Below, piece after piece: positions 11,513-17,332 of a stretch of 64,000 nt of DNA. The notes below the pieces were generated by a model. It made no database searches. It was not told the origin of the DNA and saw nothing but the letters and a program-made list of their open reading frames with translations. Source of the DNA: a virus. Taxonomy: Duplodnaviria; Caudoviricetes. The DNA lies in the IMG/VR virus record IMGVR_UViG_3300021514_000002, positions 128,001 through 192,000 of that record. One strand, 5' to 3'. Every line of letters begins with the position of its first letter. Positions within the stretch are counted from its first letter, which is position 1. A program made the position numbers and the translations under genes.

Positions 11513-12022
11513 TTTGCCTTCTGCCTATACGGCAGTGAACAACTTTGAAGCTATCAAGCTTTTAAGTATTAACTTCTAAGCTGCCTATACGGCAGTGAAC
11601 CTAATAATGTAGCAGTAATTGTTTTGTCGTTCCTTCTAAGCTGCCTATACGGCAGTGAACATGACACAACAGCGAATACACTCGTCTATGTTTCTTCTAA
11701 GCTGCCTATACGGCAGTGAACTGATAGCCGCATACCTAGTGGGTTTTTTGAAAGCTTCTAAGCTGCCTATACGGCAGTGAACATACCATTGGATAGTGGA
11801 ACGGAAAGAGGCACCTTCTAAGCTGCCTATACGGCAGTGAACCTTCCCATACTTCCAACACTTTTAGTTTCGCACTTCTAAGCTGCCTATACGGCAGTGA
11901 ACGATAGAACCTATTCCAGTTATTCCAGTTAATCCTTCTAAGCTGCCTATACGGCAGTGAACATTAGTTACCCATAGGTCTTCTGCACTTGACGCTTCTA
12001 AGCTGCCTATACGGCAGTGAAC
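11513..12022 (-). CRISPR. Type I-F CRISPR array: 9 repeats (last degenerate), 8 spacers of 32-33 nt
   Basis: 28-nt repeat GTTCACTGCCGTATAGGCAGCTTAGAAG at 11995, 11935, 11875, 11815, 11755, 11694, 11633, 11573 (left coordinates); degenerate trailer repeat 11513-11540. Confidence 0.99.
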
Positions 12023-12157
12023 AGGGTGAATTTTACTAAAAACTTAACCAAAACAAACGGTTATAGCGTTTTATACTATTTGACCAATAAAAATCATGTG
12101 ATTCATAACGTATTGATAATGTTAACATTTTATAAATAAAATATTTCATTGGTCAAA
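12023..12157 (-). promoter_or_regulatory. CRISPR leader with IHF sites and a 10-bp inverted repeat
   Basis: AT-rich; WATCAANNNNTTR match at 12106-12118 (minus), 1-mismatch site at 12051-12063 (plus); TTTGACCAAT/ATTGGTCAAA at 12079-12088 and 12148-12157. Confidence 0.75.
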
Positions 12158-12704
12158 ACCAAGGTATAGTGGCATTTTTACTTAAACCAAAGCAATCAAA
12201 TTGTCCGACAGTTTGAACTTTTGTTAATTCTCCAAAAGTCAAATATCTGCGATGTTTATGTTTATTAGAATTACTTACTAATTCCATATATGGTTCATCA
12301 AGCCCATGGTTAAACATTTTATTTTTATACAATTTTATATCAGCAGTGGATATTGAGTTTCTTTTAATTAACCGTCGTAATTTAGCTTCAGTCATATTAG
12401 ATTGCTTACGAGAAATTATTCTATAAAGGCCGTTATCTGGTACTTTACGTATAATACCAATTAAACAATATTGCGCCAAATTGCCCAACCATTTAGTATT
12501 TTGGAAGTTTGTTAGTTCGTTTTCATTACCATGAATTCTTAACGTTTTCCCAAGTACTATATTATAATCAGGGAAACTAACGCCAATATTAGATGATTTT
12601 AACGAAAACAATCTCCAATGAAATTTAGTATAAACTTCATTAAGTAATACATTTTGACGAAATTTCTTATTAGGTTGTATTAATATATCGATATAATGTT
12701 TCAT
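12153..12704 (-). CDS. cas6f: CRISPR endoribonuclease Cas6f (Csy4)
   Basis: 183 aa; IGVSFPDY...LRIHG, Arg-rich EAKLRRLIKR helix, C-terminal FDCFGLSKNATIPWF; abuts the I-F array. Confidence 0.95.
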   Translation of the reverse strand: MKHYIDILIQPNKKFRQNVLLNEVYTKFHWRLFSLKSSNIGVSFPDYNIVLGKTLRIHGNENELTNFQNTKWLGNLAQYCLIGIIRKVPDNGLYRIISRKQSNMTEAKLRRLIKRNSISTADIKLYKNKMFNHGLDEPYMELVSNSNKHKHRRYLTFGELTKVQTVGQFDCFGLSKNATIPWF

Positions 12705-13720
12705 TAGTTTCTCCTTGGACGAGTATCAATATTAGAGACATAAGCCAAGCCTTTTTTACCCAAAGGGAAACTTGACACGCCAGCATTTTCAATCATAGTT
12801 TTTATTTCTGTTGCGTCTTCACGATTAATATCTATATAAATTTCAAGTGTTCCACTGGCTTTGGTTAGCATTGAAACTACTTCACCTTCACCTTTTATTC
12901 TTTCTTTTCGGATATACGGATTACCATATATTTTCTTTTTTTCCCCCGTGGTAAAACGATCCATAAAATCTTTTTTTGTAAAAAGACGTTTAGATATACC
13001 AGATATAACGCCTGTTTTGGTAATAGCGGTAGATATATCAAATGATTCGGAAAGTCTATTTAATTGCAAATAAATGGCAGAACAATATACATTTTCAATA
13101 ACAATTTCGCCTTTATTATTAACATAATTAGTGTCATTAAATTGTGTATCTAAATATTGTATGACTTTTTTTGCCTTACCTTGAACTATAATAGATTTAA
13201 TCTTTCTTAATTCATCAAACTTTTCACAAATTACAATCGGATCAAGTTTAATTAATTTGTCTACTTTGGTATCATCTAAAATGAAAGAATATAATTCATC
13301 AGTATCTAATGCTAATACCCCCCATAATTCTTGTGAATAATCTGATTGAAAAATAACGTCATCGGTCTTAATCATCCCTGTAAAAGAATTTTGATCAGTA
13401 CTGCCTGAAATATTTCGAATATAAGTCATTTCATTAGTTAATTCTGGATTATCCATAAATGTAACTAACTTTTCAATGTCTCGGAAATAATAATCACTTG
13501 TGCTACGGGAATGGTATAACTTTCTTTGATCACCAATAAGACGATTAATTACCCCCATCACAGTATTCAGTGTGATTTCCCGACGAATAAAATTCTTCGA
13601 GGTCTTTAAATTGGTCATTGAAGCAATAAATTTACGCCCCTTTTTAGGTAATGCCACATTATTGTCGCCATCCAGAAACGAATTTCTCCACGATGAATCA
13701 TAATTAATTAATATTTTCAT
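12704..13720 (-). CDS. cas5fv: Type I-F2 (I-Fv) Cas5fv
   Basis: 338 aa; [43 protein letters not shown] resemble Shewanella putrefaciens Cas5fv as recalled; position between cas7 and cas6. Confidence 0.9.
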
Positions 13721-13729
13721 ATAAACACC

Positions 13730-14677
13730 CTATTTGGCGTAGAAATAAGATGCAAATTCAGATTCAGGCATCTCCGAGATTTCAGCTTCATTGCGCTTAA
13801 TACGCATCATTTTATTACTATCATTGTAATCAATTAAAATTTCATCAACATACATATATGATTTTGCTTGACGGATAGATAGTTCACTGATCATTTGTAA
13901 AGTGTATTCAATTAACGCTTTTATTGCATCATTATTTAATAAAATACCTACTTCACCCTCTTCAAATATTGTACCTTCACGCACATAGTTCTCATGAAAG
14001 ATAGCCATTGAATTTAATTCAGGATTAAGTGATTTAATATAATTTTGAATAGTTTTCGCAATTGTTTCACCTTCACCCTCTTTGATGGTCATGCTTGCCC
14101 TGCCAAATTTATTATCAAGTGAGATGAATTGTAATTGTTCGATACTAATGGAACCGTAAGAGAGATATTTAGTATCACCAAACGTAGTCTTTGAAAAGAA
14201 CGAAGAGCTATCACGCTCACCAGCTTGTGTCATTTGTTCAAAATTTCCATTGCCTAATTGGTCTACAAAATCTTCCATTAATAACGGGCTGGTTCGTTTA
14301 CGTTGACTAGAGGGTACAACGTAACCACGAATTAATCCTGTCATAGAGGCAAGTACTTCTAATAAGTTATTTTTCGCGGCGTAATGCAAGTCAAATGCTT
14401 GATCACGAAATAAATGATGTCTAACACAGTTTTGACTAATATATAAAGGATTTTCTTTGAAATCAATATCGGTAGCTTCCTTTTTATATTTGTAACCTGT
14501 TTCATCTTTGATCTTTCCTGTTAAATTAGAATAACCACGCAATTTTGGCATTGTATGATTGTTAAAGGTTTTCCCATCATTACCTGTTAAGGTTGTTGGT
14601 CCATTCCAATTAACAACACCGTGTCCTAACGCCGTAATCTTAAAATCAACACTTTTGATGCCTGTTACTTTTTTCAT
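13730..14677 (-). CDS. cas7fv: Type I-F2 (I-Fv) backbone Cas7fv
   Basis: 315 aa; [24 protein letters not shown]..., [20 protein letters not shown] closely resemble S. putrefaciens Cas7fv as recalled. Confidence 0.92.
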
Positions 14678-14681
14678 TTTT

Positions 14682-17267
14682 TCACCCTATTAATATATTT
14701 GAAATTGAACCAATCGGCTGCTTGTCACAAATTGCATAATAAATAGCTGATTGATGTGCTTTTTGTTCGCCACCAATGGCGTTCAAATCTTCTTTTGTGT
14801 AACTTAGATAAATTGGTGTATCTGGATTTCGTGCAGCATTTAATAATATATCTTCATTATACGTTTTTTTCGTTTTTTTGATATTATGATGTTTAGTTAA
14901 CATATATGATAACAGATTATTCTCAGCATTACCATACCCTTTTATTAACCCAACACTTGCTGTTAATCCTATTGTAGTTTGGGTATGATCAGTGTCTTCT
15001 GTATAAGCATACTCATTTGGAAATTCATATTTTTTCGAATTTACTACGCGGCAAATTGCCATTTGTACAAATCTGTTATCACCACGTAAAGAATTATTTT
15101 TAATTTTACTCGTCTGCTTGTTTAATGAAACTTTTTTATGAGGGTAAAATAATGGATCTATTATATTTTGGTTTATAAGTGTTGCACTGTCTTTTAACAT
15201 TAATAATAATTCTTCTTTAATTTCGTTTAAAGATATTTCGTCCTTATAGAATTTTTTATATAACGCATAAAGATAATTAATATCAACAACATTACTGTTA
15301 ACATTGGAACATAAAAAATTATACCATGCTTTAGTGCTTTTTAATAAATTCTGCGTTCTTAAAAACCAACCGGTTTGTCCATTATCTATATTTTCAGGTA
15401 CTACCGTAAGGTATTCATTGATTGTGTTATTTTTACCAAAACGATCTAAACGACCTAACCGCTGTAACCAATTCTCTGCGGTTGTTAATTCTGTTATCAT
15501 GTTATCGCAGCTAATGTTTAATGAGGATTGAATGATAGGTCCACTACGCATTATATCGAATTCACTATTACCACCTTCCTTGAAATTATCCATAATCGTA
15601 TTAAATAATGAAAGTTTATCAGCTTTTTTGAATTTAGAATGAAACAATATACCATTTTCTTGATGCATATTTTTAATAAAACCGAGTTGTGCAGTAATTG
15701 CGGTATTACTAATCACAAACGTATTCTTTTTGAATATTTTTTGTGTTAATAATGAATTATTCACATCATCAATTTTAAAATTTACACGATATTTAGATTT
15801 GTTAAAGCTTTTAATATCAAATATATCACTTGAATCAATTTTTAAGACTTTATTCACAAAATAGTAATTGGGTGTAGCAGATACCAATAATGTATTTGCC
15901 TTATCTCCTTGTAACTTTTTGTTTTCAATTAGTTCTGCAAACAACAAATTAAAGGCTGGCATTGTAATTAATTCATGATATTCATCGAAAATGACATGTG
16001 AATTCATTAAAGTTATTAATGCAGTTATATCAGAATGTGTGGTAATTGTGTTTATCGCGTGATCTATCGTAGTAATAACAATATCCCCTGTGAACATATT
16101 ATGTTCTGCGGTTTCCTGCTCAATGCCATTAGTTTTTGTATTTTTGTACTCACCTGTATAAATTTCTATTCGACTGTTTTTTAAATAATCCAATTGTGAC
16201 AGATCGTGATATAGTCCAAGACACACGTTTACCCGAGGAGCTATCCATATAATTTTCTTAACATTACTGTTGAATGCCCATTCTAGGGCAATTTTAGTTT
16301 TACCACAACCCGCTGGCCCTTCAAGAACTGCAATATCGTTAACATCTTGACATTGTTTTGCCACTACCGCTTGTGCTTTGTTTTGTTGACTATCTGGGTA
16401 TAATATAGTAAAGCCTTCAAGACATTGCGCTATTTCAGTTTGAAGCGTACTATTATTATCCAAATGTTTATTGGTTAAAAAGTTTAAACTTTTATCGTTT
16501 ATACGTGTTGTCAATTCACAAGCTGAAAGTGTTGACACAATTCTATCAGCAGTTATAATAGCAGCCCTGATGATATTTTTATCAGCGTTTTCTTTAATTT
16601 CCCTAGTATAATCATCAATAATATCATTGTTTTCCGAATATTCTTTATAAAGGAGATTTTGTTTTTTTAAAGCGTATACAGCATCCTCAGTTATATCCGT
16701 TACTCGTTTCGGTAATTTGATAACATTATTAGAATAAGTTAAGAGTGAAGAATTTACACTTTCCAATATTTGACTGGCTTCTTTTAGAAATAATTCCATA
16801 TTCATATCAGCATTAAAAGAATTATTGACTTTATTGTAAATTTCAGCTTGATTTTTGTAATTATTCTTTCTTATAGGTTTACTGTGATGCCAGTAAATAC
16901 CATGTGTCGCATAATCAAATTGTTTTGGATTTAATCTTTTATCATTTCGATCATTTAGTAAATTAAATAGAAATAGTGAAATTTCGTTGTGTCTTGGATG
17001 CTTTTCAAAAGAAAATTTGCCCCTGTTGATATGTACCCCATCATTAACATCCACTGCTTTTGAACGAGAGTTTAACCAGTTTTGAAATGCAGGATCTAAT
17101 TTACCGATGTCGTGGAAGCAACCCGCCACCAATGTAGCATATGCTAATTTACTATTATTAGTAAGTTTATTAACAATATCATATCCAATCCACCCAACAG
17201 CAAATAAATGATCGGCAAGTAAATGTTGTTTATCATTAGCATAATATGATATTAAATTATTGGTCAC
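14682..17267 (-). CDS. cas3: Cas3 HD nuclease-helicase, apparently without an N-terminal Cas2 domain
   Basis: HD motifs HLLADH, FHDIGK, WHH, TAD; SF2 motifs [23 protein letters not shown]; GTG start with the first HD-domain His about 15 aa in. Confidence 0.95.
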
Positions 17268-17303
17268 TATTCTGAGTATCCTACTTCTGTTTAAGTTGAC
17301 AAT

Positions 17304-17332
17304 ATTATAACCTAATTCTAATAAGTTGTCAA
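17304..17332 (-). promoter_or_regulatory. Phage-type sigma70 promoter of the cas operon
   Basis: TTGACA-ACTTATTAGAATTAGGT(17)-TATAAT, 36 nt upstream of the cas3 start. Confidence 0.85.

Follow-up and report, generated by a model that had tools for sequence, protein, structure and literature searches.

Type I-F2 (I-Fv) CRISPR loci are exemplified in bacteria by that of Shewanella putrefaciens CN-32, and among phages the Vibrio phage ICP1 encodes its own cas1 and cas2-3. Leaders of type I-F systems have a pair of IHF sites and a pair of 10-bp inverted repeats, the latter flanking the distal IHF site, and in the complex from Pseudomonas aeruginosa ~150 bp of DNA are folded by IHF, with the inverted repeats held by the Cas2 dimer of Cas1-Cas2/3 (10.1101/2023.05.26.542337). 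Integration in these systems needs a repeat that begins with 5'-GT, and the leader motifs target diverse GT-starting repeats (10.1101/2023.05.26.542337). The idea that an array lacking adaptation genes can be extended in trans has already been published for plasmid type IV-A3 systems and for the mini-arrays of archaeal viruses. Plasmid type IV-A3 arrays were shown experimentally to gain spacers in trans via the Cas1/2e of a host I-E system, and the authors of that work speculate that the same kind of adaptation operates on phage loci (10.1101/2023.06.23.546257). The archaeal viruses SPV1 and SPV2 carry mini-arrays of 1-2 spacers, with host-like leaders and no cas genes, for which spacer turnover between sibling viruses has been observed and the adaptation machinery of the host has been proposed as the writer (PMC6858448). 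Almost all of the CRISPR loci of huge phages are without Cas1, Cas2 and Cas4; the survey that reported them, which cites the type I-F system of Vibrio phage ICP1 (its ref. 26), did not analyse leaders, the word 'leader' occurring 0 times in it (PMC7162821). Leader motifs with a known structural role in type I-F systems give a handle on how the arrays of huge phages are written. Here we describe a locus which, as judged from its sequence, is a phage-borne CRISPR system devoid of adaptation genes and equipped with a leader predicted to be competent for adaptation.

The stretch of DNA that was analysed (the window; 64,000 nucleotides) comprises bases 128001-192000 of a virus record of 363,531 bp, which CheckV rates as 100% complete and which has a G+C content of 36% (30% in the region of the locus). 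The locus is surrounded by phage genes, and the phage is a lytic-type jumbo phage. An operon on the minus strand encodes cas3, cas7fv, cas5fv and cas6f, followed by a leader and a CRISPR array. Leader positions are numbered such that position -n is window coordinate 12022+n, and WATCAANNNNTTR denotes the IHF consensus.

14682..17267, minus strand: cas3 (HD nuclease and helicase, 861 aa)
13730..14677, minus strand: cas7fv, 315 aa (NF040577, 475 bits; cut-off 200)
12704..13720, minus strand: cas5fv, 338 aa (PF20158, the Cas5fv helical domain, 1.1e-61)
12153..12704, minus strand: cas6f (Csy4), 183 aa (PF09618, 1.7e-49; TIGR02563, 2.8e-42)
12148..12157 (-135..-126), no strand assigned: IR-distal, the distal inverted-repeat arm ATTGGTCAAA
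12023..12152, minus strand: leader, 130 nt, from the cas6f stop codon to repeat 1
12127..12141 (-119..-105), minus strand: A/T-rich box 5' of IHF-distal, a partial match to the bacterial GCTCTTTAAC/AAAT box
12106..12118 (-96..-84), minus strand: IHF-distal site TATCAATACGTTA, exact consensus
12079..12088 (-66..-57), no strand assigned: IR-proximal, the proximal inverted-repeat arm TTTGACCAAT
12051..12063 (-41..-29), plus strand: IHF-proximal site AAACAAACGGTTA, one mismatch to WATCAANNNNTTR
12025..12046 (-24..-3), minus strand: leader block not conserved in the phage, occupied in bacteria by a T-tract and a -10-like TATACT box
11513..12022, minus strand: CRISPR array of nine type I-F repeats (28 nt) and eight unique spacers (32-33 nt)
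11995..12022, minus strand: repeat 1, the integration site, with a 5'-GT start

Cas8f is absent, the effectors are Cas7fv, Cas5fv and Cas6f, and the interval between cas3 and cas7fv holds no other ORF; the locus is a DNA-cutting type I-F2 (I-Fv) interference module. A perfect promoter, TTGACA-17-TATAAT, is found upstream of cas3. The phage Cas3 corresponds to the bacterial I-F2 Cas2/3 minus the N-terminal Cas2 domain of about 110 residues, and begins at the HD domain. Full I-F2 systems possess an adaptation module composed of Cas1f and a Cas2-Cas3 fusion, which the phage locus does not have. Neither Cas1 (PF01867) nor Cas2 (PF09827) was detected in the whole 363,531-bp record, TIGR02562, representing the Cas2-bearing N-terminus of I-F Cas2/3, had no match in the phage genome, tblastn searches of that genome, in which Cas1f and the Cas2/3 Cas2 domain from bacteria served as queries, returned only noise (E of at least 0.4), and pseudogene remnants of cas1 or cas2 were not present. 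The absence of cas1, asserted in a preliminary description of this DNA, is thus upheld by profile searches and tblastn over the entire record, and extends to Cas2. A phage-encoded IHF or HU was rejected as a candidate, PF00216 being without a match in the genome. The absence of Cas1 and Cas2, together with a Cas3 that starts at the HD domain, implies that the locus is an interference-only derivative and an incomplete member of type I-F2. It has no adaptation genes of its own, yet its leader and repeat are compatible with a Cas1-bearing system.

Eight of the nine repeats are identical, and in the leader-distal one (11513-11540) the last 8 nt are degenerate; as the degenerate repeat lies at the end farthest from cas6f, the leader is fixed on the cas6f side. 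The phage repeat GTTCACTGCCGTATAGGCAGCTTAGAAG shows 1-2 mismatches to bacterial I-F2 repeats, and the spacer length of 32-33 nt fits the product of an I-F integrase. A second array, sought across the phage genome, was not found. The spacers had no match in the phage genome outside the array or in the 160 fetched loci described below, no protospacers were recovered from a phage database, spacers 1 and 2 retrieved nothing from IMG/VR, and the matches of the array in a plasmid database were repeat-to-repeat only, with other I-F arrays. The PAM is unreadable because protospacers were not found. The array is short, with 8 spacers, an observation that in itself speaks against spacer gain in trans.

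The range of 12023-12157 that the preliminary description gave for the leader does contain the motifs, but the intergenic leader proper is confined to 12023-12152 (130 nt). On the plus strand positions 12106-12118 read TAACGTATTGATA, whose reverse complement TATCAATACGTTA fully fits WATCAANNNNTTR, so that the exact IHF consensus claimed for the minus strand stood up to re-reading and recomputation. The perfect 10-bp inverted repeat said to surround this site is equally real, the segments 12079-12088 and 12148-12157 being exact reverse complements, as is the one-mismatch IHF site claimed near the first repeat (AAACAAACGGTTA, 12051-12063, 29-41 nt from repeat 1). The mismatch of the latter is an A for T, common to the bacterial I-F2 consensus cAACAAnnAnTTAg. 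The IR-distal arm overlaps the stop codon of cas6f (12153-12155) and includes a -35-like TTGACC on the minus strand, while the A/T-rich box (12127-12141) holds the -10-like hexamers TATAAA/TAAAAT. With regard to this arm, its overlap with the end of cas6f and with a -35-like hexamer means that other causes could partly explain its conservation, a point against the trans reading. A T4-late-promoter-like word, TATAAATA (plus strand, 12131-12138), was rejected as a chance occurrence, there being 56 copies in the genome and about 80 expected by our own estimate from base composition.

The exact IHF consensus has 66 copies in 727 kb (both strands), 2.2% of 135-nt segments contain one, and the 4 copies found in the window (9.7 expected) represent no enrichment. 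Of 2000 shuffles, 2 produced a 10/10 inverted repeat within the position ranges of the phage arms. Sites with one mismatch to the IHF consensus are frequent (expectation 0.35 in 135 nt); the IHF-proximal site is insignificant alone, and gains significance because of its conserved position (profile p=1.8e-4, see below).

For comparison we used 160 loci (L009-L168) encoding relatives of the phage Cas6f, 80 of them from species-representative genomes and 80 from metagenomes. Nearly all of these loci are I-F2, and 67 of the 73 having at least 7 kb of upstream sequence encode Cas1f together with a Cas2/3 that retains the Cas2 domain (first ~100 residues). A total of 107 distinct bacterial or metagenomic I-F2 leaders were right-anchored on the first repeat and aligned without gaps. 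Their consensus displays (T)(G/A)ACCAA, i.e. ACC(A)A, near -130, followed by the GCTCTTTAAC/AAAT box; then AAATCAAnnaGTTAC, with an IHF consensus beginning at -96 or -95; (C)ATTGGT near -65; and cTAAnTnTTGTTGTAAC at -42..-26 (cTAAnTnTTGTTG at -42..-29). The -42..-26 element is an IHF site on the opposite strand with the same A-for-T change as the phage site. Directly before the repeat the bacterial leaders contain a T-tract and TATACT. The phage leader matches this consensus at about -130, at -96/-95, at about -65 and at -42..-29, and in a first listing about 25 of about 60 bacterial leaders had the exact IHF consensus at the same position as the phage.

A profile was built from 100 of these leaders, after removal of those at least 85% alike, and scored against the base composition of the phage, with p values derived from windows of the phage's own genome. 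The IR-distal arm of the phage obtained 9.0 bits (bacterial median 6.6; p=2e-4), the IHF-distal site 5.0 bits (median 9.0; p=4e-3), the IR-proximal arm 10.5 bits (median 9.4; p=1.2e-4) and the IHF-proximal site 9.4 bits (median 13.6; p=1.8e-4). The whole stretch from -135 to -27 reached 45 bits, a score unreached by any other of the 726,846 windows of the phage genome, and in a leave-one-out ranking the phage leader takes the 37th percentile among the bacterial leaders as a whole and the 41st among the cas1-linked ones. Displacing a comparable leader by a single nucleotide in either direction makes its score collapse, and the register is hence exact. Furthermore, a 10/10 inverted repeat as in the phage is present in only 4 of the 107 bacterial leaders. 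The phage leader is no more than 54% identical to any leader sampled (mean 43%), about the level of random bacterial pairs (46%). In the block -24..-3 the phage scores -4.4 bits versus a bacterial median of 14.5, such that the docking motifs were kept while this block was lost, a differential change within the phage leader. The 22 repeat-proximal nucleotides that differ from the bacterial consensus might impair integration, which is a consideration against acquisition in trans. All four I-F docking motifs thus appear in exact register, beyond mere IHF-like words, in what is by sequence a genuine and complete type I-F leader, and the premise of the preliminary description that I-F leaders use IHF sites and inverted repeats for Cas1-Cas2/3 agrees with published work (10.1101/2023.05.26.542337).

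The best protein identities to the sampled loci are 82-86% for Cas7fv, 68-73% for Cas5fv, 63-64% for Cas6f and 58% for Cas3. The best metagenomic matches of Cas6f (P0002 and P0005, on contigs of ~50 kb) are 64% identical, and a scan of 80 metagenomic loci recovered none closer than ~63%. For identical residues with fourfold-degenerate third positions, the third base agrees at a frequency of 0.23-0.45 (most values 0.31-0.42), where random agreement at this A/T-rich composition would be ~0.33 by our own estimate. The fourfold sites of the cas genes are saturated relative to every sampled relative, and a close donor is absent from the sample. Since the neutral sites are randomised and the motifs are nevertheless intact, the retention of the latter looks like constraint and not like a fresh copy. 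Base composition was tried as a clock and rejected as non-discriminating, the GC3 of the cas genes (0.20-0.26) lying in the phage range (0.21-0.33) and the bacterial I-F2 mean being ~0.30. Searches for related phages, among records that may leave out those nearest to this genome, were empty in each case, namely megablast of the locus against INPHARED, and the comparison with IMG/VR of Cas6f (one protein sequence, and a profile of 30 sequences), of the exact 28-nt repeat and of the neighbouring AAA ATPase; the metagenome scan likewise brought up no related phage or array. As to the host, the bacterial spacers of the fetched loci (3,530 in number) matched the phage genome exactly over no more than 18-19 nt, as expected by chance.

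We propose, as the best reading and with a probability of roughly one half, that the array may borrow the Cas1-Cas2/3 and IHF of the host to gain new spacers. The leader would have arrived in the phage along with the I-F2 interference module from a proteobacterial source. As the phage has no Cas1, Cas2 domain or IHF/HU, the motifs presumably cannot serve an integrase made by the phage, and they would have been retained since the array is still fit for docking. Given a host that possesses an adaptation module of type I-F (F1 or F2), the leader would be bent by host IHF at both IHF sites and gripped at both arms of the inverted repeat by the Cas2 dimer of host Cas1-Cas2/3, whereupon new 32-nt spacers would go in at repeat 1 of replicating phage genomes, for subsequent use by the phage Cas6f, Cas7fv and Cas5fv with Cas3. 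Transcription of the array is probably independent of the lost bacterial repeat-proximal promoter, and would more likely result from read-through of the cas operon and/or from the distal promoter-like site TTGACC-N16/18-TATAAA/TAAAAT. Somewhat more tentatively, we suggest that selection might preserve the leader as a landing pad for host Cas1-Cas2/3-IHF, with the host machinery loading spacers into phage genomes during infection. If so, the phage would gain a weapon against competitors or host elements, and the adaptation of the host might be drawn away from its own arrays; if not, the locus would be a stripped I-F2 module of the ordinary kind, and its leader a leftover.

The chief competitor to acquisition in trans, which we nonetheless consider rather unlikely, is that the leader is a recent vestige, captured with the cas3-to-array segment or left behind by deletion of cas1 and the Cas2 domain, and functionless but undecayed. 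The phage is indeed without its own Cas1, Cas2 and IHF, and the donor may be unsampled, so that saturation relative to sampled relatives does not date the loss. Stripping also recurs, in that bacterial I-F2 loci lacking Cas1 and Cas2 and possessing a good leader exist: for example, a Methylococcaceae MAG (L085) has a Cas1/Cas2-less I-F2 operon with a 67-repeat array and a 40.9-bit leader, in which the IHF site is at -96. No Cas1 was found elsewhere in the genomes of this and of another stripped I-F2 locus (L080), both of which are incomplete MAGs. However, under a neutral model with about 29 specified positions (the two 10-bp arms and 9 IHF positions), P(all intact)=exp(-29d), and for all of them to be intact d can be no larger than about 0.1 substitutions per site after the end of constraint (5% level, own calculation), whereas the branch to the sampled relatives is saturated. 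A vestige also sits poorly with an inverted repeat better than that of 96% of the cas1-linked leaders, with a change in the usually conserved neighbouring block -24..-3, with the lack of cas1 or cas2 pseudogene remnants and with the perfect TTGACA-17-TATAAT promoter of cas3, which suggests a settled locus. Continued constraint on the motifs is accordingly favoured, if unproven, and may have operated in an unsampled donor with cas1 up to a time just before capture. The preliminary description had left acquisition in trans and a recent vestige side by side; the saturated sites, the perfect inverted repeat and a score within the cas1-linked range tilt this choice towards constraint.

An improbable alternative is that the motifs were kept for transcription or regulation, IR-distal being the -35 element of a crRNA promoter and bending by IHF modulating expression of the array or of cas6f. 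The bacterial block -24..-3, with TTGTAA 16 nt upstream, looks like a crRNA promoter, and this TTGTAA-16-TATACT falls to 7/12 matches in the phage, which on its minus strand has TTGACC (12156-12151)-18-TAAAAT and TTGACC-16-TATAAA, each with 10/12, a value attained at that place in just 1 of the 107 bacterial leaders. These promoter-like matches are nevertheless at the chance level for such an A/T-rich stretch (3 versus 1.5±1.1 in shuffles), and a promoter would leave unexplained the IR-proximal arm, the perfect complementarity of the arms and the two IHF sites in integrase-linked register. Moreover, the junction of cas6f and the array is without a terminator, making read-through from the cas3 promoter possible in any case. 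Still less credible, indeed very improbable, is the use of the leader by an unrecognised phage integrase or analogue of Cas1/Cas2 encoded elsewhere in the 363 kb: most small phage ORFs are without family assignment, which leaves room for such an enzyme, but matches to Cas1, Cas2 or the N-terminus of Cas2/3 occur nowhere in the genome, and nothing in the phage is comparable to Cas2, which in the solved I-F complex reads the inverted repeats. Finally, a chance collection of IHF-like words and a short palindrome in A/T-rich intergenic DNA, as might be suspected from the 36% G+C of the genome (30% locally), the commonness of one-mismatch IHF sites and the unenriched exact consensus in the window, is effectively refuted by an exact IHF site at the same -96 as in bacteria, the top rank of the phage leader among 727,000 windows on a profile of 100 bacterial leaders and the fact that just 2 of the 2000 shuffles gave a 10/10 inverted repeat.

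Among known systems the about 160 bacterial I-F2 loci share with the phage the order cas7fv-cas5fv-cas6f-leader-array and the leader motifs in the same register, and many of them also share its spacing of 130 nt between cas6f and repeat 1. They differ in encoding cas1f and a Cas2 domain (67 of 73 loci) and in the repeat-proximal T-tract and TATACT, all of which the phage is without, whereas the phage I-F2 locus, unlike the bacterial ones, is situated among phage genes and behind a consensus promoter. The I-F leader of P. aeruginosa, like that of the phage, presents IR-distal, IHF-distal, IR-proximal, IHF-proximal and a GT repeat over ~135-150 bp; this likeness rests on the order of the elements, as the phage positions were compared with I-F2 leaders and not with the PA14 leader. 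In P. aeruginosa Cas1 and Cas2/3 adjoin the array, while in the phage both are absent genome-wide and Cas3 is without the reader of the inverted repeats, its Cas2 domain. The phage has lost the very domain that reads two of its four retained motifs, whereby trans adaptation becomes directly testable in a phage-borne type I system.

The CRISPR loci of huge phages (PMC7162821) resemble the present one in belonging to jumbo phages, in combining a compact array with an interference module and in missing the adaptation genes. SPV1 and SPV2 too have a virus-borne array behind a host-like leader but, unlike the phage, are devoid of cas genes. Like the phage locus, that of type IV-A3 is carried by a mobile element without an adaptation module, and its leader and repeats resemble those of an adaptation-bearing system; there, however, the pairing is of type IV-A3 with I-E on a plasmid and here it is of I-F2 on a lytic-type jumbo phage, for which we infer acquisition in trans. 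If the proposal holds, adaptation in trans would extend from the plasmid type IV-A3/I-E pair to phage-borne type I systems.

The repeat-proximal part of the phage leader differs from that of its bacterial relatives. Bacterial gamma-type I-F2 leaders share the block TTGTAA-16-TATACT, which ends 4 nt before the first repeat, probably represents the crRNA promoter and overlaps the proximal IHF site with its -35 element; compared with these leaders, the block has been lost in the phage (window 12025-12046). A perfect promoter sequence is found at the other end of the locus, preceded by an 83-aa ORF and lying directly upstream of the Cas2-less cas3 gene, which has a GTG start codon. This and three features of the array and leader are:

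17285-17330, minus strand: perfect TTGACA-17-TATAAT promoter sequence, directly upstream of the cas3 GTG start
11552-11564, plus strand: second exact IHF consensus, TATCAAGCTTTTA, inside spacer 8
11903-11934: spacer 2, with an internal direct duplication, CTGGAATAA then CTGGAATAG
12131-12138, plus strand: TATAAATA, within the leader and antisense to cas6f

Only 4 exact IHF consensus sites occur across the 64-kb window; the one in spacer 8 is probably incidental. The sequence TATAAATA, the T4 late-promoter word, occurs in 56 copies in the phage genome without enrichment, and its presence in the leader is therefore probably due to chance. The duplication in spacer 2 would be consistent with a target that is itself repetitive; searches of the phage genome outside the array, the 160 fetched loci, phage and plasmid databases and IMG/VR recovered no target.

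We also compared the 150 nt upstream of the first repeat in eight Campylobacterota I-F2 loci (L041, L045, L050, L053, L055, L061, L071 and L078). None of these segments contains the IHF and inverted-repeat motifs, even though the loci encode cas1-cas2/3; they instead share the word AAAAAATAA(A/T)GGTATAAT at about -70 to -55, and their repeats start with GTAAAC or GTGAAC. Judged by sequence, these look like a second, IHF-independent type of I-F2 leader, possibly linked to the absence, to our knowledge, of IHF from this phylum.

Adaptation genes are also missing from two bacterial I-F2 loci. The operon in a Janthinobacterium MAG (L080:1-11415) encodes neither cas1 nor a Cas2 domain, and no CRISPR array was detected in the 866 nt 3' of cas6f. 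The flanking sequence is rich in G+C, which suggests that the operon was inserted into foreign surroundings. In a Methylococcaceae MAG (L085:1-20381; JBAQSX010000148.1) the Cas3 protein lacks the Cas2 domain, and cas1 was found neither within 20 kb nor elsewhere in this incomplete MAG. Its array of 67 repeats is convergent to cas6f, and its leader, which scores 40.9 bits against the profile of bacterial I-F2 leaders, retains an IHF site at -96 that matches the consensus exactly. This locus parallels, in a bacterium, the configuration of the phage locus, namely no cas1 found, a Cas2-less Cas3 and an IHF-bearing leader.
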